Program-made: the position numbers and the translations under genes
Notes under the pieces: generated by a model
Seen by the model: the letters and a program-made list of their open reading frames with translations, nothing else
Database searches by the model: none
Told to the model about the DNA's origin: nothing
Shown here: positions 28,101 to 52,352 of the stretch, in pieces
Numbering within the stretch: position 1 is the stretch's first letter
How the letters are laid out: each line of letters starts with the position of its first letter
Origin: an uncultured Acidobacteriota bacterium
GTDB lineage: Bacteria; Acidobacteriota; Vicinamibacteria; Vicinamibacterales; 2-12-FULL-66-21
Direction of reading: 5' to 3'
DNA: 64,000 bases
Assembly: GCA_963695655.1 (NCBI GenBank)
Contig: CAVOHG010000009.1
Coordinates: 372,012-436,011, forward strand

Positions 28101-31100
28101 CGACGTCGTCATCCTGGGTGAAATGGCACTGAGCGCTCCGCAGGTCAGCATGTTCACCGACTGGGTCACTGCGGGCGGAAACCTCGTTGCGATGCGGCCC
28201 GACAAGCAGCTGGCCGGATTACTCGGCCTTGCCGATGCGAGCGCAACTCTTGCGGAAGCCTACCTGCAGGTTGATACGTCAGTCGCGCCTGGGACGGGGA
28301 TTGTCGCCGAGACGATGCAGTATCACGGCACAGCCGACAGGTATACGGCCGCGGGGGCAACGACCATCGCGACGCTGTTTTCGAGCGCGACGACCGGGAC
28401 GACAAACCCCGCGGTTACTCTCAAGAGTGTTGGCGCGGCCATGCGGCGGCATTCACCTACGACCTGGCGAAATCAATCGTGTATACGCGGCAAGGCAATC
28501 CCGCGTGGGCGGGCCAGGAGCGTGACGGGACGACCCCGATCCGATCCGACGACCTGTTCTTTGGCGGTGCTTCGCCCGACTACGTCGATCGCACGAAGAT
28601 AGCGATCCCGCAGGCAGACGAGCAGCAGCGGCTGCTCGCGAACCTGATCATCCACGTTGAGTACGCCTACCCGGCCGTTGCCACGTTTCTGGTACTTCCC
28701 GCGCGGCGAGAAGGCGGTTGTCGTGATGACTGGTGACGATCACGCAAGCAACGGAACCGCCGGTCAGTTCGACTACTTCGTCAGCCAGAGCACGCCAGGG
28801 TGCGACGTGAGCGCATGGGAATGCATTCGTGGGACGTCATACATGTATCCGGCGACGCCGATCGCACCGGCTGATGCCGCTGCGTTTGCTGCTCAGGGGT
28901 TTGAGCTTGGCGTGCACGTGACGACCGACTGCGGCGATTACACGCCTCAGTCACTCGAAGCGAATTTCACGAACAACATCGCGGATTTTTCGTCCTCCTT
29001 CGCAGCCTTGCCGGCGCCGCGGACGAACAGGCTCCACTGCGTCGTGTGGAGTGACTACTCGACCCAACCTCGCGTCGCTCTGGGTCACGGCATTCGCCTC
29101 GACACCACCTACTACTACTGGCCGGCCGCATGGGTGAATGATGTGCCGGGTGTGTTCACCGGCTCGGCGATGCCGATGCGGTTCGCGGATGCGGACGGCA
29201 CGATGATCGACGTCTACCAGGCCCCCACGCAGATGACCGACGAGTCGGACCAGAGCTATCCGCTCAACGCCGACACGTTGCTCGATAGAGCGCTTGGCGT
29301 AGAAGGCTACTACGGTGCCTACGTCGCCAACATGCACACGGATCTTGCGGATCATCCGGGGGCGCACGCAATCGTCGCGTCGGCGAAGGCGCGACACGTC
29401 CCTGTGATTTCGGCGAAGCAGCTGCTCGACTGGGTGGATGGTCGAAACGCCGCCACTTACACCGCGCTCGCCTGGACCGGCAGCACCTTGACGTTCACGG
29501 TCACCGCCGACGCACGCGCCACGGGACTTCAGATGCTGGTTCCGGCTGCACAGGACAGCCACATCGTTACCAGCGTGCTTCGGAATGGCGCTCCGGTTGC
29601 CTTCTCGATTCAACAACTCAAGGGCGTGGCCTACGCGGTGTTCGGTTCAGCGCCGGGTGCCTACACCGTGACGTATGCAGCCGACACCACCGCGCCTGCA
29701 ATCACAGCTGTGGCGGTTACGCCTGACGCAACCACTGCCACGATCACCTGGAACACGAGCGAGGGGGCAACATCCAGCGTCATGTTCGGTACGAATCCGA
29801 ACCTGATGAACGCATCGGTGTCATCGGCCGTGCTCGCCACGAGCCACTCGATCACGCTGAACAGTCTGGCGCCAGGCACGACCTACTACTTCCGCGCGGT
29901 CTCGAGCGACGTTCATCGGGAATACAACGAGCGCACCGGCGCCGCCGGCCGCGCCGCTCAACTTCCGAACGCTGCTGGTGCCAGCGCTTGGTTGCCCGTG
30001 CTCGATCTGGAGCGCCAGCGCGACGCCAGCGATCGCGTCGGCAGCAGACGCCAACGCCATCGAAGTGGGCGTCAAGTTCAAGGCGGCCGCGAACGGGTTC
30101 ATCACGGCACTGCGGTTCTACAAGGGACCCTCGAATGGCGGGATCCACGTGGGTAGTCTGTGGACCAGCGCGGGCGTCCTGCTCGGCAGGGTCACCTTCG
30201 CGAACGAAAGCAGCACCGGCTGGCAGCAGGCTACCCTGCCCCAGCCGGTGGCGCTCACCGCCAACGCGACCTACGTCGTCTCCTACAACTCGAGCAGCGG
30301 CGGGTATTCGGTCGACTCGCAATATTTCAGTGCCGGCGGGGTGACCAACGGCCCGTTACAGGCGCTTGGGGACGGCGTGAGCGGCGTAAACGGCGTCTTC
30401 GCCTACGGTGGAACCACGTTCCCCACGCAGTCGAACGACAGTTCGAACTACTGGGTGGACGTGGTGTTCGTCACGACCGTGCCTCCGTCGGCGCCCGGCC
30501 CCCGTGACCCTGACGGACACGACGGCCGCGGACTTCAACGGCGGCACGGTTGACGCGGGTGCCTACGTCGGCAATTTCGCCGGCGGCGAAATAATTCTGC
30601 TGCCAGCGCTCCACGAAGAGTTCTCCGGAGGAGTAGTTCCGGCAGACTGGACCTCCACGGCGTGGGCAGCTGGCGGCACTACGTCCTTCGCTGGCGGCCA
30701 GGCGACTATCAACGGCGCACTGCTTCACGTCAGACGGGCTGCTGTCGTCTGGGCAAAGCCTCGAGTTCGTGGCTACTTTCTCCGGCGGCGCCGCACAGCA
30801 CGGCGGCTTCGCACTGGACTTCGGTCAAAACCTCTGGGCGATCTTCAGTACGCAAAGTGGCGGCGCATTGTTCGCGCGCACTCACGACGGCATCACGCCC
30901 ACTGATACGCCGCTACCTGGCAACTGGCTGGGCTCCCCCCACGCATTCCGCATCGATTGGGCGAGTGGACTCGTCAAGTTCTACATTGACGGCACCCTCG
31001 TGGCCAGCCATGCACAGTCGATCCCCGATCCGATGCGTCCGGCATTTTCGGAGTTCAGCCCTGGCGCGGATGCGCTTCTTGTTTCGTCTGTTCGACTGGC

Positions 31101-33972
31101 ACCCTACGCAACCGCCGGCACTTTCACGTCACGAATCCTCGATGCCGGCTCTTCGACCGTCTGGGCATCCGCTTCGTCCGTCGCGACCACTCCGGCAGGA
31201 ACCACGCTTGCCCTCAGCGTGCGGTTCGGAGACACGCCGACGCCGGACGCCACGTGGACGTCGTTCAGCAGTGTCGCGCTCGGCAGCGCCGCTCTCACCG
31301 GAACGTCGCGATACGTTCAATATCGGGCGGTCATGACCGGCACTGGCGACACGACACCCGAACTCGCTTCCATCACCCTGTCCGGGACGGCCGTGGCACC
31401 GCTGCCGACCGTGTCGGTCACTGGGGGGAGCATCGTCGAAGGCAATTCCGGTTCTGCCTACGAAGAGTTCACGGTGACGCTCTCCGCACCTAGGTTCAAC
31501 CAGGTGAGCGTGTCTTACTCGACCTCGGACGGCACCGCATCGGCGGGCAGCGATTATCAGGCTTCGTCCGGCACTATCCTCATTCCCGCCGGATCGACAA
31601 CGGCCAGCATCGTGGTTCCGATCACTGGCGACGTCGTCGTTGAAGCCGACGAGACATTCGCATTCACGTTGAGCGCGCCTGTGAACGCCACTCTGGGTCA
31701 GGCTCAGGCGACCGGAACGATCGTCGACGACGATGTGCCGTCGATTTCGATCGCGGATGCCCTCGCGACTGAGGGCGACGGTGGAACTACGAATGCTGTC
31801 TTTGTAGTATCGCTGTCGGTGCCCGCTTTCCACACGGTAACGGTACCGTTTACCACGACCGATGGGACCGCGCTGGCGCCGCAGGACTACACCGCAACGT
31901 CCGGAGTCGTAACGTTCCCCGCGGGAACGACCACGCGCGACATCAACGTGCCAGTGGTTGGGGACAGCCGGCATGAGCTGAGCAAAAACTTCGCAGTAAT
32001 CCTTGGCTCCCCCGTCAATGCTGTCGTCCAGGACGGTAGCGCGACCGGCGTAATCGCGGACAACGACCCAATCCCCGCGGTGACAATCGACGATCTCAGC
32101 ACCACAGAAGGCGATTCCGGCAGCCTCGTGGCAAGCGTGACCGTCAGGCTGTCACGCGCCAGCGACCAGGTGGTGACGCTGTCGTATGCCACGGCTGACG
32201 TCACGGCGGCGAGCCCTGCCGATTTCACGGCGAGTGCGGGCACGCTGACGTTTGCCGCGGGAGAAATCACAAAGACGATTGGCGTGTCGGTGACTGGCGA
32301 TACCGTCGACGAGCCGGATGAAACCTTCGCGGTGAACCTGGGCGCGCCGGTAAACGCGACCATCGCTGACGCCCAGGCGATTGTGACGATCGTCGATAAC
32401 GATCCCCCCGGGCCGAACGAAAACGCGCGCATGGCGGTCGACCGCACCGGCCTCTACTTCGGTGCAACGAACAACGGCGCGATCAAGACGGGCTTGCAAA
32501 CGGCGAACGTCCGGTTCACAAACGGGACGGGCACGTGGTCGGTGACGACAACCGCGCCGTGGATTCAGATCGGTGATGGAACCGGCAGTGGCGCCGGCAC
32601 GTTCCTCGTCGGTGTCAAACCCGGAACCTACCCGTCCGGCACGATCTTGTCTGGAACGGTGACGGTCACAGCCCCAGGCGTGCCAAATTCTCCTCTCGAC
32701 GTCCCGGTGCAGTTCCGCGCCTATGCCGGTACGGCGGTCCCCGACGGCACCGTGGATACCCCGGCTGATAACGCGCAGTCTGTGGTCGGATCGCTCGCGG
32801 TCACCGGTTGGGCGGTTGATGACATCGGCGTATCGCGCGTCAGCATCTGGCGCGATCCTCTGCCGGGCGAACCGACGTCAGGACCTGAACGGGAAGGTAT
32901 TCATCGGCGACGCGGTGCAGGTGGATGGCGCGAGCCCGGACATCGACGCGGCCAGGTCGCAGCCATTCGACTACCAGTCCGGCTGGGGCTACCTGCTGCT
33001 GACCAACATGCTCCCGCGACCAGGGGAACGGCACGTTCAAGCTGTTCGCCTACGCCGACGATCTCGAGGGACATCGACGCGCTGCTCGGGTCGAAGACGA
33101 TCACTTGCGACAATGCGCACTGCGATCCGGCCGTTCGGCGCCATCGACACACCGACCCAGGGCGGCGTCGTGTCCGGGTACGGCATACGTCAACTTCGGA
33201 TGGGTGCTGACGCCGCAGCCGAACACGATCCCGACGGACGGGTCGACGATCATGGTGTACATCGACGGCGTCCCGGTGGGTCACCCGACGTACAACCAGT
33301 TCCGCGGCGACGTCGCGGCACTCTTCCCGGGACTCAACAACAGCGACGGCGCCGTGGGTTACTTCATGATCGACAGGACGACGCTGTCGAACGGGGTGCA
33401 CACCATCTCGTGGGGCGTCACCGACAACGCCGGCAACGCGGAGGGTATCGGCAGCCGCTACTTCACCGTGCTGAACGGAGCGACCGCAATCGTCGGTCAC
33501 GGTCGAGACGAAGCTCGAGCATCGAGTCGGCGATGGGACAGGCGCTCGAGGTGCGGACGTCGGCCGCGATCGGCGATTCGAGCGGGGCAGCTGGCACATC
33601 ACTCGACTTCGCTGCCTGTCAGTCAGACGCCGGTCTATCTGCGAACCGGGTTCGACCAGACCGCGCCGCTCGAATCTCGTGGAGGCAGACGCCAGTGGCG
33701 TGAGGCGCGTCAGCGCCAGCCCAGGTGACCAGGTTCCAGCTGACGCTCGGGTCGCCGGTGGACAGTGGCGGCTGACGATCGTTACGAGGGTTACGTCGTT
33801 GGCGGACGGCGCGCCTGCAGGCCTTCCGGCGGGAGCGCTGCTCGACCGCAGGACCGGCGAGTTCTTCTGGCAGCCCGGCGTCGGGTTCGGCGGGTGTCTA
33901 CGACCTGGTCTTCGTCCGCATCTCGGGTGACACGCGCGAAGGATCCCGGTGAAGGTCACGATCAGCCGCTGA
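25183..33972 (+). pseudogene. Giant secreted multidomain protein (about 2,900 aa): DMFase-beta-like domain, Ig, 2x DUF4082, FN3, LamG/ConA-like, 3x Calx-beta, shared C-terminal module; frame broken 12 or more times
   Basis: The N-terminus is MDPLTHVAAFRRTLVAAGIVLAILLL (signal anchor). The collinear protein is recovered by chaining ORFs 25168..28602, 28479..28736, 28657..30156, 29978..30553, 30408..30905, 30769..33210, 32723..33703, 33105..33728, 33679..33930 and 33765..34052. DUF4082 signatures: AIEVGTRFRSDTSGYVTAIRFYK..GHLW..SGWQQATF and AIEVGVKFKAAANGFITALRFYK..GSLW..TGWQQATL. The Calx-beta units show TSDGTASAGSDYQASSG-type motifs. Confidence 0.75.
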
Positions 33973-33996
33973 TCGATGACGCGCAGGGCCCGGACC

Positions 33997-34025
33997 GAGA
34001 AAGGGCCGCCTCGCGGCCCTTCTGC
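33997..34025. terminator. Hairpin between the convergent giant gene and gmd (paralog of the 24814 terminator)
   Basis: AAGGGCCGC (34001-34009) pairs with GCGGCCCTT (34013-34021) across a 3-nt loop. The T-run is poor on the + strand (TTCTGCTCC), while TTTCTC follows on the - strand, so it may serve both convergent genes. Confidence 0.6.
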
Positions 34026-34061
34026 TCCAGCCTCTGTATCCCCGAGGGATGACGCGACGAA

Positions 34062-35168
<1,107 letters not shown>

Positions 35169-35357
35169 TCACTGTCGTTTTTACCCGACTTCCTGGCAGC
35201 CCTGCAATTCTTGCGCGGTTTCTGTAAGAGCGCGCAGGCACGTGCACACTTCCGCTTCCCTCGATCCCTCTTTTCAGGCCTGTTTTTGCTCAGCTCGCCG
35301 GCTTTCAGCTCTGGCATATGCGTTGCCTTTGACGAAGACGACTCGTCAAGGAGCCTT

Positions 35358-37181
35358 ATGCTGAAACCACGCCTCGGCGTTGCCGTGCTTTTGACCGTTC
35401 TGCTGTCTGCCGCACCGCGAATGCCGCCGCGATTTCCCTGACCTGGGATCGCAACGCGGAATCCACGGTGACTGGCTACGTGGTGCAAGTCGGCAGCACT
35501 CCTGGCGGCACGGACCAGGCCATTGACATCGGCAACCAGATCTCGTGGACGTTCGGGTCGGCAGTTGCCGGCAAGACGTATTACTTTCGCGTCCTGGCGT
35601 ACAACGCCGCCGGCGCGAGCAGCCTCCCGTCGAACGAGGTCTCGGGCGCGGCTCCGGTTCCGACCAACGTGCCGCCGTTCGGGAGTTTCGATACGCCGAC
35701 CAACAACGCGACGGGGCTGACGGGATCGGTGGCGGTGACTGGTTGGGCGCTCGACGACAACGGGGTCACGCGTGTCCGGATCCTTCGTGCGACCCGTGGC
35801 GGGCGAGACGCCAGGAACGCTGGTCTACATCGGCGACGCGTCACGCGTGCCCGGTGCCCGTCCGGACATCGCCGCGAAGCTAACCCGACCGCTGCTCAGA
35901 AGGACCGCGCTGGATGGGGCTACCTGTTGCTCTCGCTGTTCCTTCCGAACCTCGGGCAACGGCACGTTCACGCTCTATGCCTATGCAGACGACGGCGACG
36001 GACATTCGACGCTTGCTCGGCACCAAGACGATCACGTGCGCCAACTGCGAGCTTCGATCACTCCCGTTCGGCGCGATCGATACGCCGGGCCAGGGCGAGG
36101 TCGTCAGCGGAGTCGTCAATAACTTCGGCTGGGTGCTGGCGCCGGGAAACTCGCCGCGCCGATCCGACCCCGGCGGCGGAACCGTGCGGGTCGTCATCGA
36201 CGGTGTCGCCTGTCGGAAGTCCCGACCGGTTGGACCACCCGCACCGATCTCACGAGCCTCTTTCCCCGTCGCGAGCTACAAAGGGATCGCCACCGCACTC
36301 GGCGTGTTCACGTTCGACAGCCGCACCCTGACGAACGGCATCCATACGATTGCCTGGGCCGTGACCGACAACATGGGAGGCACGTGCCGGCGTCGGCAGC
36401 CGGTACTTCACGGTCGCGAACGCGTCGGCTTCTACCGCGGCGTCGACCGCGGCAAGCACGGCGTCGGAGAGCGCGGCAACCGCTGCCGTCGCGCAGGTGG
36501 CACGACGCCGCTCGTCGGACGTCACGGCTACGACCTCGATGCGCCCTGGCGCAATTACCGCGCGAACTCGGCCGGCGTCGTCGTCGTCCAGTCCGAGGAG
36601 CTCGATCGAATCGAGCTGTATACGCAGGCAACGAGCGGGTCGCTCGTGACCGCAAACGGTCTGCGCCATCTGCCGATCGGCGCCAGCCTCGATGGCGGCG
36701 TGTTCACGTGGCAGCCGGGTGCAGGTTTCGTCGGCTCTTACGACTTCCTGTTCACCGGGCCCGCCGGTGATCGCCAGGTGCGCATCGTCCTGAACCCGAA
36801 GGGTAGTGGACGGGTCGGACCGCAGGTGGTCATCGACACGCCGTCACGCAGCACGAAGGGCCTGGTCGCGGCCGACCAGCCGTTCGTCATCGCCGGGTGG
36901 GCCGCCGATCTCGGACTCGACGGTCGATGGCGGAGTGGACGCCGTCCACATCTGGGCGTATCCGCGCAAGCGGCGGCGACCCCATCTTCCTCGGACAGGC
37001 GTCGCTCGGAGGCATGCGCCCCGACGTGGCCGCGGTCTACGGCAACCGGTTCCTGATGAGTGGCTACGGCGGCACGGCCGCCGGGCTGCCCGCAGGCGAC
37101 TACGACATCGCGGTGTTCGGCTGGAGCACCGTCCTGCAAGGCTGGGCGCCGGCGAGCACGGTCACGATTCGAGTGCGCTAA
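35358..37181 (+). pseudogene. Secreted FN3-domain protein carrying the Ig-like part of the shared C-terminal module (third paralog); many frame breaks
   Basis: AAGGAG (35348-35353) precedes ATG 35358. Signal peptide: MLKPRLGVAVLLTVLLSAA. The frame shifts by about 35420 to ANAAAISLTWDRNAESTVTGYVVQVGSTPGG..KTYYFRVLAYNAAGAS (FN3), then PPFGSFDTPTNNATGLTGSVAVTGWALDD. Fragments are ORFs 35468..36331, 35772..36122, 35914..37056 and 36897..37181 (stop TAA 37179-37181). Confidence 0.7.
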
Positions 37182-37186
37182 CGATC

Positions 37187-37360
37187 ACAGGTTCTACAGG
37201 GTTCTACGAGGTTCTCACAGGGTTCTACAGGTTCGGCGGGTTCTACAGGTTCGGCGGGTTCTACAGGTTCGGCGAGGTTCTGCAGAACCGAACCAAGTAG
37301 AACCCGTAGAACCGAACCAGGTAGAACCCCGTGAGAACCCGGTAGAACCTCGTAGAACCC
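37187..37360. repeat. Long imperfect palindrome built from GGTTCTAC / GTAGAACC units
   Basis: The left arm has GGTTCTAC-type units at 37190, 37200, 37210 and 37221, then the 18-mer AGGTTCGGCGGGTTCTAC three times (37229-37282). The centre is the perfect 14-nt palindrome GGTTCTGCAGAACC (37276-37289). The right arm carries GTAGAACC/GAACC units to 37360. Confidence 0.9.
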
Positions 37361-37366
37361 TATAAT
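37361..37366 (+). promoter_or_regulatory. Candidate -10 box (TATAAT), 6 nt upstream of the lhgO GTG
   Basis: A perfect TATAAT sits in otherwise GC-rich DNA. Six bases (CTCCGA) separate it from GTG 37373 and there is no room for an SD sequence, so a leaderless transcript is possible. No convincing -35 element was found. Confidence 0.25.
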
Positions 37367-37372
37367 CTCCGA

Positions 37373-38472
37373 GTGGAAGAAATAGACGTTCTCGTTGTCG
37401 GCGCTGGTGTCGTCGGGCTCGCGTGCGCTGCGGAAATCGGTCTCTCGGGTCTGACGGTCTGTCTCGTCGAGCGCCATCCGCGCGCGGGGATGGAGACAAG
37501 CACCCACAACAGCGGTGTCCTTCACGCTGGTATCTACTATCCCCCCAACAGTTTGAAAGCGTTGCTCTGCGTCGAGGGGCAGCGTCTGCTCTATGAGTTC
37601 AGTGCCAGGTACGGGGTTCCTCACCAGCGCTGCGGAAAGCTGATCACTGCGTCGGCATCCTCACGAGATCGGCGCGCTCGAAGCCCTCATGGCGCGAGGG
37701 AATGCGAATGGTGCGGACTCACTTCAGATGATCGATCGAGCGGAGACGCTCAGGCGTGAGCCAAACGTTGCCGCGGTTGCTGCCATCTGGTCGCCCGGTA
37801 CCGGGATCATCGAGCCGGAGGCGCTGGTACGAACGCTGCGCGATCTCTGCACCGCACGCGATGTCGTATTCCTGCCGGGAACGACTGTGCTGAGAGCGGA
37901 ACCGGCCGCGGACGCACTGGACGTTTACACGGGCTCGGAAACGATTCGCGCCCGCACCGTGATCAATGCCGCTGGTCTCTACGCCGACGAGGTGTCGGAG
38001 GCATGCGGAGGCGAGACGTTCAGGATCTATCCGGTGCGGGGCGAGTACGCGGAGCTCGTGCCGGCAAGACGATCACTCGTCAACGGCTTGATCTACCCGT
38101 TGCCCCACGCCTCCGGGCCACGGCCTCGGAGTCCACGTCACCAAAACCACCTGGGGAGGCGTCCTGTTTGGACCGACGGCGGCATACCAGGAACGGAAGG
38201 ACGACTACGAGGGCAATCGCATTCCCGTCGAAGCCTTCGTCGAGCCCGCGCGGGAATTGCTGCCGGGCATCCAGCTCGAGGACCTTCGACCGGGCGGAAC
38301 CGGCATCCGGCCGAAGTTGCATCCGCCCGAAGACTCGTTTGCAGACTTCATGATCCGACGCGACTCGCGCATACCCGCGCTGATCCAGGCCGCTGGAATC
38401 GAATCGCCAGGGTTGACGGCTTGCCTCGCAATTGCGAGGCGTGTTGGGGCGCTGGTTCAGGAGAGCGCGTAG
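37373..38472 (+). pseudogene. lhgO: L-2-hydroxyglutarate oxidase / FAD-dependent oxidoreductase (LhgO family), 2 or more frame breaks
   Basis: It begins (GTG)[21 protein letters not shown] and has [22 protein letters not shown]. It continues in ORF 37689..38624 (..[23 protein letters not shown]) and ends in ORF 38257..38472 (..[25 protein letters not shown]). Confidence 0.75.
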
Positions 38473-38490
38473 AGGCGTTCGCGTCCGAAC

Positions 38491-39330
38491 TCATGGGCGG
38501 GCGACATGTCGCTCGAGCGCGTTCTGCCATGTCGGCATCGCGATCCCTGCGAGCCGCAGCTTCTCGTTCGAAAGCGCACAGTATTTGGGTCGCTTCGCCC
38601 GAAGCACCACGTCATCGAAGCTGACCCGATCGAGCACCGGCTCGCAGCCCAAGATGCGAGCCGCTTCCTCGGCCATGCCGGCCCATGTCGTCACGCCGGT
38701 GTTGACGCAGTGATACAGCCCGGAGCGGCGGGCGCTTTTCGACGCAGCGCGACCGTCGCCTCTGCCACGTCATCGACGTAGCTCGGAGTGACCGTGCGAT
38801 CGACGAAGACGCGTACGGGCTCACCGCGGCGGATGCCATCGAGAATTCGGTCGACGCTGCTCTTCGCCCGCTCGCCGCCGAACAGGCTCTCGACGCGCAG
38901 GACGTAGTGGTCCGGCGCCTCGGTGGCGAACCACTCACCCAGTAACTTCGAGAGACCGTAGTTACTCGACGGCGCCGGCGTGTCCGACTCTGTATAGGGT
39001 TGGTGGGCCCTGCCGTCGAACACGAAGTCCGTACCGTAATGAACCAGCGTCGCGCCGGTCTGACGCGCGGCTCTCGCCAGCGAGAGCACGCCAAAGGCAT
39101 TCGCGTCGAGCGCCTCCAGCGGCTGTTCTTCCGCCTGATCGACAGCGTTGTATGCGGAGCAATTGACGATAACGTCCGGCCCGAAGCTCGCCGCCACTCG
39201 CAGGACGTCATTCTCGACCGTGATGTCGAGGTCCTTTCGCGTCATCGCACTCACGTCGGCGAATCCGTGAGAATCGACGGACGATCGCGCGCCCGAGCTG
39301 GCCCGCCGCGCCGGCAACAAGAACGCGCAT
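38491..39330 (-). pseudogene. dTDP-4-dehydrorhamnose reductase-like SDR (RmlD family), 2 or more frame breaks
   Basis: ATG 39330 gives MRVLVAGAAGQLGRAIV. The frame shifts by about 39265 into ORF 38691..39320 (..DLDITVENDVLRVAASFGPDVIVNCSAYNAVD..YGLSKLLGE), and the C-terminus is in ORF 38491..38694. It overlaps the degT stop by 1 nt. Confidence 0.75.
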
Positions 39331-46077: not shown

Positions 46078-46137
46078 GGTGGCAACCGACCGAATCGTAT
46101 CATGCGCAGCTGAGCCGGAAGGGTACCGGTACTTTCG

Positions 46138-49379: not shown

Positions 49380-50921
49380 CGGCCGACGGGAGAGGCGGAG
49401 CCGGCGTGCTCCGTCCCTCCCCCTTCTCGACGTACTGCCGCTCCGTCGCGCGGATCGCCTTGTACCTGGCGAATACCGCACGCGCATCCTCGAGACCAAT
49501 CGCCGACCGCCACGTACTGCCGCGGAAGGTATGGGCCATCATCCGTGCACCGTTCTTCAGCACGAACCCCGGATAGTGCCTCACGACCGAAGGAAGGTGG
49601 CGCACCTTCATCCAACGCTCGGCCCGCCATCTCGAGAACTCGATATCGTCGGCGGAGAGATGACGGCTCTTGACGACTGCTGTCGTCCCGTCGTACTCCT
49701 CGACCCGCTCACTCACGATCAGCCCGCGTTCGCGAAAGTCCTTCGTCATCGGAGTGCCGGGGTAGGGGGTCGGATGCTGGATGTACGGCCAGTCGACGAA
49801 ACGGCTCGCAAACCGCAGGTTCGTGTCGATCGACTCCTGCGTGTCATCGGGATTGCCGACGATGATGCCGCCGACGACGTACATGCCGGCACGGTGGATC
49901 CGATCGATGGCTGAGAGGGTCGCGTTGCCTGTCCTCCTGCCTCCCTCACGCTGGGCGTTCTTGGCGCTCGCCTTGAGGAACTCGAGGTCATCGTCGAGCA
50001 CATTCTCGATCCCCAGGAACACGTAGCGGAACCCGGCCGCGTGCATCAGCGGCGCGAGCGTCTCGCCATGATTGGCGATCGACGAGGTCATCGCCTGGAC
50101 GATGTAGTGGATGTCGTTGAAGCCGGCGGCGATGATCGCCCTGCACATCGCCTCGAACCGGGCGACGTTCAGCGTGATGTTGTCGTCGACGATGAAAATC
50201 GCGCGCGCGCCTCTCGCCCGTGCGTCGGCAATGTCGGCCAGGACTCGTTCGAACCCGAACGTGTGGAAGTTTCGACCGCGCATCTCGATGATCGAACAGA
50301 AGCTGCAGTCGAAGGTGCAGCCGCGCGAGGTTTCCACGATGTCAATCGGGCGGCCGAGAAAGGTGTACCCGTCGAGCACGCGCGAGCCGCGGTCAGGGAG
50401 CGCAATCGAGCCATCGTCCAGTCCGCTGACCGGTCGCGGCGGGTGGTGAACGAACCGGTTGCCGTCGTGGATCGACAGTCCCGCGAATCGCGTCAACCGG
50501 CTGGCCGCCGTTCCAGGCAGCGGAGCAGATCACGAAAGGTGAGGTCCCCTTCGCCGCGGACGATGAAGTCCACGCCCGACCCCGGTTCCTCGTAGGCTTC
50601 GGGCGCGAGGCTGGGGTCGTACCCGCCGGCCACGACCGTCACGCCCGGCTTGATCGCGCGAATCAGGCGGACGAGTTCGAGTGCGGTCTTGCGCTGGAAC
50701 GTCATCACCGAGAGGCCGACGACGTCAGGATCGCCGTCACGCATCAGGCGCTCGACCACGGATCGCACCTGCGCCTGGACGAGGACGAGATCGGCAACCG
50801 AGACGCGATGGTGCCGGTCGACATTGCCGGCGAGCGACGCCAGTGCTCCGTTCGGCATCCGCATCGTGAGTGCAGGCGTGTGCTCGAATGAGTCCGGCAT
50901 CGAGAGGAGCAGTACTCGCAT
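49363..50921 (-). pseudogene. B12-binding-domain radical SAM protein, one frame break near 50495
   Basis: ORF 50493..50921(-) reads MRVLLLSMPD..DVVGLSVMTFQ..VVAGGYDPS..IVRGEGDLTF (B12-binding domain). ORF 49363..50496(-) has IVETSRGCTFDCSFCSI (CxxxCxxC), IFIVDDNITLN and FLGIENV. Its 3' end overlaps the DUF1080 gene by 17 nt (convergent). Confidence 0.82.
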
Positions 50922-50948: not shown

Positions 50949-51155
50949 CAGCTGTCAGCTATCAGTTTTCAGCTATCAGCTATCAGCTTCAGTCAGCTCT
51001 GGCCATCGGCTTTTAACTTCAGCATCCGGATCATGGGATCCAGGAACTCGTTTCAGCCCTCAAGACTGCAACGTGCAGCTGATATCAGGTCTTTTCACCA
51101 ATAACTGATAGCTGATAGCTGACAGCTGATAACTGACAGGCGACAGCTGACAGCT
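50949..51155. repeat. Inverted arrays of the heptamer CAGCTAT flanking a core of about 100 bp
   Basis: Left arm (50949-50998): CAGCTGT CAGCTAT CAGTTTT CAGCTAT CAGCTAT CAGCTTC .. CAGCT. Right arm (51103-51155): AACTGAT AGCTGAT AGCTGAC AGCTGAT AACTGAC AGGCGAC AGCTGAC AGCT, which is the reverse complement. It fills the spacer between the LLM stop and the rSAM start. Confidence 0.9.
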
Positions 51156-51156
51156 C

Positions 51157-52224
51157 CTATGCCGCCGTCATCCGGTCCCGCACTTCCGCGACGATTTCGA
51201 AGGTTCTCAGCCGTGCGATGTGATCGAACACCTGCGCGGTCAGGATCAACTCGTCGGCTGAGGTCGCCGCGATGAGGGTGGTCAGTCGAGCCGCAACGGT
51301 GTCCGGAGATCCGATTGCCGCGTAAGCCATCGCATGTTCCACACCAGCCTGCTCGAACGGCGTCCATCGCCCCTCCATGCTGTCGACCGGCGGCTGCAGC
51401 GGTCCAGGCGTCCCCCTCCGGAGATTCACCCACTGCTGCTGGAGCGAGGTGGCGAGGCGCTCAGCTTCGGCGTCCGTGTCTGCCGCGACGACGCTGACAC
51501 CGACCATCGCATACGGCCGCTGGAGCTGCTCCGACGGTCTGAACTGGCGTCTGTAGATGTCGAGCGCCTGCATCAGGTAATCGGGAGCGAAGTGTGACGC
51601 GAACGCGAATGGCATCCCGAGCGCCGCGGCCAGTTGGGCGCTGAAGAGGCTGGAACCAAGCAGCCAGATCGGCACTCGTAGTCCTGCGCCCGGAATCGCA
51701 CGGACAACCTGGCCCGGCTGCACCGGTGCAAGATACGCGCGCAGTTCCTGCACATCGCGAGCGAAGTTCTCTTCGGTGGCTGAAAAATCGCGGCGGAGTG
51801 CGCGCGCGGTCGTCTGGTCGGTGCCCGGGGCGCGGCCGATGCCCAGATCGATGCGCTCAGGATAGAGCGATTCGAGAGTGCCGAACTGTTCGGCGATGAC
51901 GAGTGGCGCATGATTCGGCAGCATGACGCCACCGGAACCTACGCGAATCGTGCTCGTTCCACCGGCGACGTGCCCGATGACGACGGCCGTCGCGGCGCTG
52001 GCGATCCCCGGCATGTTGTGGTGTTCGGCGAGCCAGTAGCGGTGGTAATCCCAACGCTCTGCGTGCCGGGCCAGGTCGAGCGTGTTGCCGAGCGCCTGCG
52101 CGGCAGACCCGCCTTCGATGATGGGCGAAAGATCGAGCACCGAAAACGGGATCGTTGGGCATTGCTCTGGTGCGCCCCCGACATGGGGACACTCAACTGT
52201 ACGGTAAGCCGCCGGTCCGTTCAA
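51157..52224 (-). CDS. LLM-class flavin-dependent oxidoreductase (luciferase-like monooxygenase family)
   Basis: ORF 51157..52224(-), 355 aa. It has [91 protein letters not shown]. The start is uncertain (TTG 52224 or GTG 52140). Confidence 0.85.
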
Positions 52225-52253: not shown

Positions 52254-52352
52254 CGGGACTGCGGGATCGGGCTCGGGATCGGGGATCAGGGATTCAGGGA
52301 TTAAGGATCGGGAGATCGATTGGGAACTGGTCGACTGGCGACTGGTTGCAAC
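52254..52352 (+). repeat. G-tract / GATC-rich tandem array ending in the palindrome GGTTGCAACC
   Basis: Nine G3-4 tracts fall in about 70 nt (52255, 52263, 52269, 52275, 52281, 52289, 52297, 52310, 52322), mostly as GGGATC units. There are five GATC sites (52265, 52277, 52284, 52306, 52314). ACTGGTCG/ACTGGCG/ACTGGTTG repeats follow, then GGTTGCAACC at 52343-52352. Confidence 0.85.

Follow-up and report, generated by a model that had tools for sequence, protein, structure and literature searches.

A foldback-type octamer array in an intergenic spacer of a Vicinamibacterales bacterium belongs to a dispersed and apparently undescribed palindromic repeat family

The arms of the Drosophila Foldback element FB are built from 10-bp outer units, which pass into longer compound units toward the inside. 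In Galileo, the subrepeats hold additional binding sites for the transposase (PMC4079207). In bacteria, the REP, BIME, and REPIN sequences are dispersed and intergenic, lie mostly downstream of genes, contain GTAG as a motif, and produce no target duplication; the roles proposed for REP sequences are the protection of mRNA 3′-ends and the attenuation of transcription (PMC3733652). Bacterial heptamer arrays such as TAACTGA, which occur in Beggiatoaceae, Cyanobacteria, and Bacteroidetes, are direct repeats, with a single inverted set among 170 (PMC4679880).

The window, by which the whole analyzed stretch of 64,000 nucleotides is meant, harbors an element between two co-directional genes that is one member of a dispersed family of non-coding palindromic repeats, lineage-specific to the Vicinamibacterales. 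The explanation preferred overall, to which a probability of about 0.6 is assigned, is a bacterial “foldback” family whose copies would have arrived by insertion at the DNA level and would later have taken on a role at RNA 3′-ends, in protein binding, or in both. The parts of the element and its immediate neighbors are the following:

37179–37181, plus strand: TAA stop codon of the upstream gene, outside the element; the gene is the last of three tandem paralogs, and its C-terminus can be aligned to the homologue in locus L124
37186–37361, no strand assigned: the whole gained segment of 176 nt, i.e., the foldback element with short terminal linkers; boundaries ±1 nt, from the alignment to the empty site of L124
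37190–37229, plus strand: left outer arm with the four phased units GGTTCTACAG, GGTTCTACGA, GGTTCTCACAG, and GGTTCTACA, from the sequence and an arm profile
37230–37275, plus strand: left inner compound units GGTTCGGCG and GGTTCTACA, with an 18-nt period and three perfect copies phased from 37221
37276–37289, no strand assigned: central perfect palindrome GGTTCTGCAGAACC, the hairpin tip; the centre is unconserved in other family members
37290–37320, minus strand: right inner units GAACC, GTAGAACC (twice), and GAACC
37321–37359, minus strand: right outer arm with four phased units, a mirror image of the left outer arm (inverted repeat of 39 nt, 87%; arm profile)
37361–37366, plus strand: −10 box TATAAT, which belongs to the downstream gene, stands 6 nt ahead of the GTG, and is outside the element
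37373–38624, plus strand: gene of a DAO-family FAD-dependent oxidoreductase (L-2-hydroxyglutarate-oxidase-like), with a GTG start at 37373; split over two frames in the assembly

The window contains the octamer GGTTCTAC 14 times, with 0.67 occurrences being expected. Ten of the 14 perfect octamers lie inside the element, five on the plus strand (37190–37264) and five on the minus strand (37297–37359). The 8-nt units are separated by linkers of 1–2 nt and are mirrored in orientation from one arm to the other, with the variant unit GGTTCTCAC on the left being faced by GTGAGAACC on the right. A first-pass annotation of 37187–37360 had described these octamer units, the perfect palindrome in the center, and an imperfect collinearity of the arms; all three are found in the sequence, the right inner units matching the left inner units only imperfectly. 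Its count of three perfect 18-mers is right for another phase, in which GGTTCTACAGGTTCGGCG occurs three times, while the phase named there, AGGTTCGGCGGGTTCTAC, occurs twice. That the element is no coding repeat follows from its position between a stop and a start codon and from the GTAGAACC units, which give TAG in all three frames.

The element is predicted to fold into an interrupted stem of ~80 bp, which begins 8 nt past the upstream stop codon. As RNA, the plus strand reaches −112.9 kcal/mol (z −11.5) and the minus strand −123.0 kcal/mol (z −13.8), and as DNA the element reaches −61.7 kcal/mol (z −12.7); none of 200 shuffles was equally stable in any of the three cases. The long bulged hairpin that had been proposed from the letters alone is thereby borne out on both strands. 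The GGTTCTRCNN units are without self-complementarity, and pairing arises solely between the opposed arrays. Because the linkers of the two arms are not complementary, the stem is not optimized. Furthermore, the antisense strand is the better folder in eight of the nine co-directional copies of the family, which fits poorly with selection on a hairpin in the sense RNA.

The gain of the element is documented by a comparison with 67 metagenome loci, each of which encodes a relative of the downstream oxidoreductase. The element is absent from all 67 orthologous loci. In L124 the synteny is kept, with two tandem homologues of the window's upstream gene being followed by the oxidoreductase gene. 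The junction in L124 reads GTC CGG TAA CGAT AGAATCTCCAG GTG (also given as TAACGATAGAATCTCCAGGTG), and that of the window reads CGC TAA CGAT, 176 nt, ATAATCTCCGA, GTG. When 37186–37361 is deleted, the window aligns to L124 without a gap through stop codon, spacer, −10 box, and start codon. Given this alignment and the shared synteny, the element represents a clean gain in a 15-nt spacer. At most 1 nt is duplicated at the window/L124 junction, and no consistent direct repeat that would represent a target-site duplication is found at 15 other copies. In L141, a small hairpin of 8 bp occupies the same place as the window element.

The element adjoins the TATAAT box, as had been noted in the first-pass annotation. 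The box belongs to the conserved promoter of the downstream gene and not to the element. It stands at the same distance in element-free orthologs, as TAGAAT in L124, TATGAT in L141, TATAAT in L172 and L137, and in others. A start codon is present at the projected position in 27 orthologs. Nine of these carry a hexamer that agrees with TATAAT at five or six positions and is located 6–11 nt ahead of the start, with no such hexamer at any other place in the 45 nt upstream; eight of the nine fall among the 11 orthologs that start with GTG. The spacing between box and start suggests that the oxidoreductase transcript is probably leaderless, which would place the element where any upstream promoter contacts would be. 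A sigma-70 promoter scan of 36900–37700 yielded no full promoter. In the downstream gene, the Pfam DAO profile is matched at its positions 1–114 in 37373–37756 and at its positions 109–248 in 37689–38150. Many genes of the window are frameshifted, the DAO gene with its two frames being one example.

Related elements were sought in 185,579 species genomes with a pattern of three octamers within short gaps, which matched at least 117 loci; ~35 Acidobacteriota/Vicinamibacterales loci are among the matches listed. The architecture is found in at least 12 Vicinamibacterales/Acidobacteriota assemblies, with several occurrences per genome; these assemblies are derived from Illumina as well as nanopore data. 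Independent Illumina assemblies with this architecture include JBPYFA01 k127, JAMQPK01 k141, MELC01, and JGI and ENA contigs. In CAVRYD01, CAVTIL01, CAWADF01, and JBPYFA01, the three-octamer pattern is found at no fewer than 5–7 loci per genome. One scanned Vicinamibacterales MAG is 72–76% identical to the window over 4.7 kb. The first-pass annotation had named a unique element without a stable fold as the outcome that would speak against it, and had suggested a search of other genomes; this search uncovered a dispersed family, and the fold is significant. Literature searches (the octamer; repeats or palindromes of Acidobacteria and Vicinamibacter; prokaryotic MITEs with tandem-repeat ends) returned no description, with incomplete coverage that leaves room for an earlier one. 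The family, which consists of bacterial intergenic palindromic repeats with foldback architecture, is thus apparently undescribed.

Several other matches were put aside. Those in Streptomyces, Bdellovibrio, Bacteroidota, and others run in a single orientation with periods of 9, 12, 15, 18, or 21, and are probably coding or unrelated repeats. The long one-directional arrays of L013, L042, L053, and L117 were treated likewise. Viral contigs contain only two GGTTCTGC arrays, which are one-directional and of different architecture.

The family copies take up 100–290 nt in total and follow a common arm grammar, in which (GGTTCTRCNN)x4 is followed by GGTTCG(G)TTC, variable inner compound units, an unconserved center, and the mirror image of the whole. 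The arms are ordered from forward to reverse in 19 of 19 two-armed copies, and the center holds no conserved sequence or gene. In the window, as in the JBPYFA, CAVTIL, CAWDSI, and CAVOPH genomes, each of the two arms has four decamers with a subsequent GGTTCG(G)TTC; the window arms contain one 11-nt unit, which is mirrored in both. Composite arms of ~45–55 nt are conserved across loci and genomes, i.e., terminal inverted repeats are present. A profile built from the arms of other genomes, with the window left out, matches the right arm of the window element at 37359–37308 (E = 5e-12) and the left arm at 37190–37235 (E = 9e-11), with no further match in the window and none in 262 kb of related metagenome loci.

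In the unit logo of 23 arms in register, positions 1–6 and 8 are near-invariant, position 7 takes A or G, and position 10 takes a purine, with position 9 being random, although the logo is partly biased by the octamer pattern with which the loci were found. Of 30 outer arms, 23 keep the strict 10-nt register. As for the fifth unit, its form is common to the copies of one genome. It is GGTTCGGTTC in 14/14 JBPYFA arms, a form that is also found in the JBPYFA copy at a site shared with other genomes (the radical-SAM/FAD oxidoreductase site, see below), and GGTTCGTTC in the CAVTIL arms; one-base differences in nanopore assemblies are a caveat to this comparison. The genome-specific fifth unit suggests either that the copies evolve in concert or that some factor co-evolves with them. 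Between the arms, mirrored unit lengths of a non-standard kind number 18, a number reached by 0 of 5000 permutations in a test that is partly confounded by genome-specific subfamilies.

The history of single copies can be followed at orthologous sites. The spacer that separates a radical-SAM gene from an FAD oxidoreductase gene was sampled in 11 genomes. Six members of one clade have the element there, with ~135–245 nt, and retain its octamers, while linkers, inner units, and lengths vary; the octamers are kept though the flanks of orthologous copies are only 78–81% identical. One further member of this clade has an array of CAGCTTC heptamers instead. In the sister clade, the site is empty in two genomes, is occupied by a mini GGTTC..GGTTC..GAACC in one, and by a mirrored GGTGCCR hairpin in one. 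A full copy in L041 corresponds to an ortholog in L075 that has the four left units only. The window itself contains an element-free counterpart of an occupied site:

46078–46137, minus strand: element-free site in the window; the orthologous spacer of L101 has a GGTTCTAC element of 199 nt

These 60 nt include a small palindrome, and the flanks are conserved between the window and L101; the pair differs by a replacement of 32 nt and not by a simple interruption. The sequence comparisons show that copies elsewhere have been inherited vertically for long periods, during which the octamer is retained, as is the number of four outer units, and the linkers, inner units, and total length drift. The copies are also open to loss, halving, or replacement.

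The copies are found in different gene contexts, here based on crude, frame-based gene calls, with ~9 copies lying between co-directional, ~3 between convergent, and two between divergent genes. In ~15 cases in which a gene reads toward a copy, the distance from its stop codon to the first unit is −1 to 15 nt. For the two copies between divergent genes, a role at a 3′-end is impossible. No transposase stands beside the one-armed arrays, whose neighbors are ordinary genes such as enolase, and neither an autonomous partner nor a cognate IS with the same ends was found in ~360 kb of Vicinamibacterales DNA.

According to the preferred foldback explanation, the element would have arrived as a DNA insertion without target duplication, either by a single-stranded, hairpin-type transposition or by templated copying from another copy. 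After arrival, slippage of units and correction from arm to arm would shape it. The resident element would be co-transcribed with the upstream gene, giving an interrupted RNA helix of ~80 bp. This helix would shield the 3′-end of the upstream mRNA and hinder read-through into the adjacent promoter in a REP/BIME-like manner. With its start 8 nt after the stop codon, the stem would lie inside the ribosome footprint. As reported by Liang, Rudd and Deutscher (2015), a gene is translated less when a REP hairpin lies within ~15 nt of its stop codon. That the octamers may also be read on duplex DNA by a protein, which could be transposase-like or regulatory, is suggested by the free linkers, by the near-invariance of the octamer, and by the 10-bp phasing. 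The element may thus function as a 3′-end or intercistronic RNA hairpin, as a phased protein-binding array, or as both.

Reading by a protein could also be the primary property of the family. The (GGTTCTACNN)4-type arrangement, with 4 + 4 octamers spaced by one helical turn, would then be bound cooperatively by a putative regulator, nucleoid protein, or transposase-like factor, and the hairpin would be a by-product. Such an array would account for the near-invariant octamer with free positions 9–10 and strict register, the constant number of four outer units, the persistence of octamers between diverged flanks, the fifth unit that is shared by all copies of a genome, and the position of copies beside promoters and between divergent genes. 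The mirrored non-standard unit lengths, however, favor pairing of strands over independent sites, the logo is partly an effect of ascertainment, and the 9-nt period in L052, L082, and L027 breaks the helical phasing, which leaves this explanation doubtful, if worth keeping in view. Local origin without mobility is rated somewhat lower and is considered unlikely. A small terminator-type hairpin would have grown by replication slippage, template switching at the quasi-palindrome would have copied the gains to the other arm, and the same runaway would have taken place at many spacers. Possible starting points are the small hairpin of L141, the mini array, which is that of L192, and the empty-site sequence CGATAGAATCTC, which is similar to unit plus linker CGTAGAACCTC. 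Mirrored arrays of the same architecture made of other units (window 50949–51155, L115 5458–5734, L053 6868–6992), as well as one in L193 at the radical-SAM/FAD oxidoreductase site, indicate that a local generating process may suffice; the 11 identical 9-mers of L052 are clear recent slippage, and short non-triplet arrays are ~3x denser in these genomes than in controls. What is not expected from independent growth is that the same octamer, the four outer decamers, and the fifth unit recur at unrelated loci and in different genomes. Moreover, linkers differ between neighboring units, so that most units are no recent slippage products.

An oversized Rho-independent terminator of the upstream paralog would be compatible with a stable hairpin that starts 8 nt past the stop codon, and with the gene end that lies within 15 nt on at least one side of most copies. 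This explanation is very unlikely, since a T-tract 3′ of the stem is absent in 9/9 co-directional copies, a terminator scan of 36900–37700 found no terminator-like site, some copies lie between divergent genes, and the L124 relative has no hairpin at the site at all; the stem of ~80 bp is, as had been stated from the outset, well beyond the dimensions of a normal terminator. The chances are equally poor for a REP/REPIN-type element of the GTAG superfamily that is mobilized by a RAYT tyrosine transposase. All units contain CTAC/GTAG, and the copies are dispersed, intergenic, hairpin-forming, mostly downstream of genes, and without target duplication, yet the 8–10-nt unit is no palindrome by itself, the GTAG lies within the paired stem and not in an unpaired tail, and no RAYT gene was seen in the 8-kb loci examined. 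Finally, the element could be thought to stem from the long-read metagenome assembly, as the many frameshifted genes imply that unit counts are possibly slightly off. The same architecture in independent Illumina assemblies and at the orthologous sites of several genomes excludes an artefact at the level of the family and makes it extremely improbable for this copy; the element is real.

The GGTTCTRC family is not the only mirrored array of the window, which contains a second element of the same class:

50949–51155, no strand assigned: CAGCTRT heptamers at 50949–50988 that are mirrored by CTGAYAG heptamers at 51101–51155, with ~120 nt in between

This element (z −6.2) occupies the spacer of two co-directional minus-strand genes. 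In 361 kb of Vicinamibacterales-type DNA, 110 arrays with a period of 6–12 were counted, and 62 of these have a mirrored partner within 300 nt; the mirrored arrays comprise at least five unit families besides GGTTCTRC. Arrays of period 7, 8, 10, or 11 without GGTTC reach 11.6 per 100 kb, compared with 3.5 per 100 kb in the unrelated genomes that the same scan had matched. The unit vocabulary that was seen includes GGTTCTRCNN, CAGCTRT, GATTGNG/CAATCAG, GGTGCCR, GAATTGGT, and others. Tentatively, and with the odds against it, a class of “mirror arrays” may be proposed for the Vicinamibacterales, in which spacers are filled by foldback hairpins whose arms consist of tandem 7–10-nt units from a limited vocabulary. 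The arrays could be produced or maintained by unit-specific proteins or by a dedicated process of amplification and palindromization, and GGTTCTRC would be the best-structured member, each arm having four phased sites, with co-evolution of these sites inside a genome. If true, the class would represent the counterpart of Foldback elements in bacteria and would add a new layer to genome organization or regulation.

The Vicinamibacterales rank with the most abundant bacteria of soil, and to our knowledge their non-coding DNA is essentially unexplored. Elements that fill whole spacers, begin no farther than a ribosome footprint from stop codons, adjoin leaderless-type promoters, and carry a conserved, strictly phased octamer offer a handle on the termination, insulation, and coupling of transcription in this group. 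The family also bears on the origin of short-unit arrays in bacteria, among them the heptamer repeats of cyanobacteria. A cognate protein or a mobilizing enzyme, if one exists, would be new. For the assembly, gene calling, and strain typing of Vicinamibacterales MAGs, the family is both a hazard and a marker.

Among the known classes, a CRISPR array, with direct repeats of 24–48 nt and unique spacers that are about as long, does not apply to 8-nt units that are mirrored and joined by linkers of 1–2 nt; the first-pass annotation had already set it aside for want of spacers, and linkers of 2 nt are indeed none. The attC sites of integrons, which follow each cassette in a co-directional array of cassettes, are defined by R″/L″–L′/R′ core sites with the consensus RYYYAAC ... 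GTTRRRY. No such consensus is present at the ends of the element, and the neighbors of family members are housekeeping genes, for example enolase, or, at another site, a radical-SAM gene on one side and an FAD oxidoreductase gene on the other. Rfam gave no match at gathering score in the whole window, and at the E-value threshold only a chance match to mir-318 in 37100–37450 (19 bits compared with 70 required, E 0.36). A tRNA/tmRNA scan found none.

The heptamer arrays, namely the cyanobacterial STRR and TAACTGA repeats, share with the family the short, non-triplet tandem units that are located in spacers near start or stop codons and recur at many loci. They are direct repeats, whereas two mirrored arms with a fixed grammar are the rule in the GGTTCTRC family. 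Heptamer arrays also occur in the window and in related genomes. MITEs are likewise short, non-coding, and dispersed, with terminal inverted repeats, but they carry unique internal sequence and target-site duplications and have a cognate IS. None of these was found for the window family, which, with no target duplication and with no cognate IS in ~360 kb of Vicinamibacterales DNA, does not fit the definition of a MITE. With REP sequences, the family shares the hairpin that forms from inverted pairs, the dispersed and intergenic location, the GTAG motif, and the missing target duplication, and the many intergenic copies per genome that are typical of REP sequences are found as well (at least 5–7 loci). 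A REP sequence is an imperfect palindrome of 20–40 bp with an unpaired GTAG tail; the unit of the family, in contrast, is a tandem unit of 8 + 2 nt. As this unit is not self-complementary and its GTAG is paired, the family is not REP.

The closest architecture is that of the eukaryotic Foldback transposons (Drosophila FB, Galileo, Tetris). In both, nearly the whole element consists of two long inverted arms of tandem subrepeats with little or no central sequence and a variable number of units, and the FB layout of 10-bp outer and compound inner units resembles the arms of the window element. The Foldback transposons are eukaryotic and kilobase-sized, produce target duplications of 8–10 bp, and carry transposase genes in some copies, whereas the window family is bacterial, measures 100–290 nt, leaves no visible duplication, and occurs without a transposase in the DNA searched.

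The orthologous spacer that measures 60 nt in the window (46078-46137), where it lacks an element, holds a 199-nt GGTTCTAC element in L101 (2333-2549), one of the L-numbered loci from other genomes or metagenomes that were compared with the window. The flanks GAATCGTATCA and TCGTTACTGG are kept in both, and the window spacer contains the small palindrome GTACCGGTAC.

The family members, which are copies with a forward and then a reverse arm of phased GGTTCTRCNN units, were also compared at their termini. GATC lies no more than about 10 nt from roughly 12 of 30 family-member ends, frequently as GATCA immediately 5' of the first GGTTC. Examples are found at window 37183-37186 and in L016, L029, L048, L064, L094, L012, and L085. 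The GATC of the window is a product of the junction, as the empty site of the syntenic relative L124 reads CGATAG. GATC near element ends may mark preferred target sites, belong to the element termini, or be coincidental. In eight of nine co-directional family members, including the window copy (37190-37359), the antisense strand relative to the flanking genes forms the more stable fold, by 5-32 kcal/mol. This advantage could reflect a strand-biased choice of A or G at unit position 7. L187 (1160-1200, GACACCTAATCTGA twice) and L029 (4780-4803, TGATCTCAA twice on the gene strand) have short direct duplications in the stretch that separates the element from the start codon downstream.

Upstream of the element, the window encodes three paralogous genes in tandem (30769-37181) with large, secreted-type products. 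The first harbors three Calx-beta domains and the third fn3/Big_7, while the C-terminal domain common to the paralogs has no Pfam match. The same tandem paralogs precede the oxidoreductase gene of L124. A TAnAAT box is positioned 6-9 nt 5' of the start codon in the GTG-start DAO-family (L-2-hydroxyglutarate-oxidase-like) orthologs of the window (37361-37372) and of L124, L131, L137, L141, L161, L172, and L177, and no Shine-Dalgarno sequence is present in these eight orthologs. Judged from sequence, this spacing and the absent Shine-Dalgarno sequence suggest leaderless transcripts in this lineage. Two-frame splits are common among the window genes (35914-37181, 37373-38624, and also 30769-33728). 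The DAO profile matches of the oxidoreductase gene (37373-38624) are spread over two frames, positions 1-114 in one and 109-248 in the other, and the paralog next to the element is broken into 35914..37056 and 36897..37181. Such genes fit either indel errors of long-read metagenome assembly or pseudogenes; because of possible assembly indels, the exact unit lengths in the element (37186-37361) have to be read with caution.

Repeat arrays of other units were found in the window and in related genomes:

Window 50949-51155, mirrored array, CAGCTRT heptamers (50949-50988) facing CTGAYAG heptamers (51101-51155)
Window 52262-52313, GGGATC(A/G/T) heptamer array, about seven copies in a single direction
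L193 1072-1200; L115 5458-5734; L053 6868-6992; L064 5130-5200; L009 5696-5794; L070 1954-2024; L117 5338-5462, mirrored hairpin arrays of other units

The CAGCTRT/CTGAYAG array, the second mirrored array of the window, has a non-repeat center of about 120 nt and a fold z (stability relative to shuffled sequence) of -6.2. The minus-strand ORF 51157..52224 has its stop codon 2 nt ahead of this array, and 27 nt separate the end of the array from the start of 50493..50921. The CAGCTRT unit also forms arrays in L193 (3056-3122) and in L034 (6639-6672), the latter exactly between two convergent stop codons. The GGGATC(A/G/T) array (52262-52313) forms no hairpin (fold z 0.2), and akin units (CCGGGAT, CGGATCC, ATCCCGA) recur in L028, L006, and L108. 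A 270-nt spacer in L191 (2951-3221) is full of compound repeats of about 28-30 nt each, based on ACACGGAA, with a mirrored TCCGTGTT part at the 3' end.

The mirrored arrays of the seven related loci are built from GGTGCCR, GATTGNG/CAATC, GAATTGGT/CCAATTC, TGCTGAA/TTCAGCA, and GGGCATT/GTGCCCA, and the one in L193 fills the same spacer that carries the GGTTCTAC element in other lineages.
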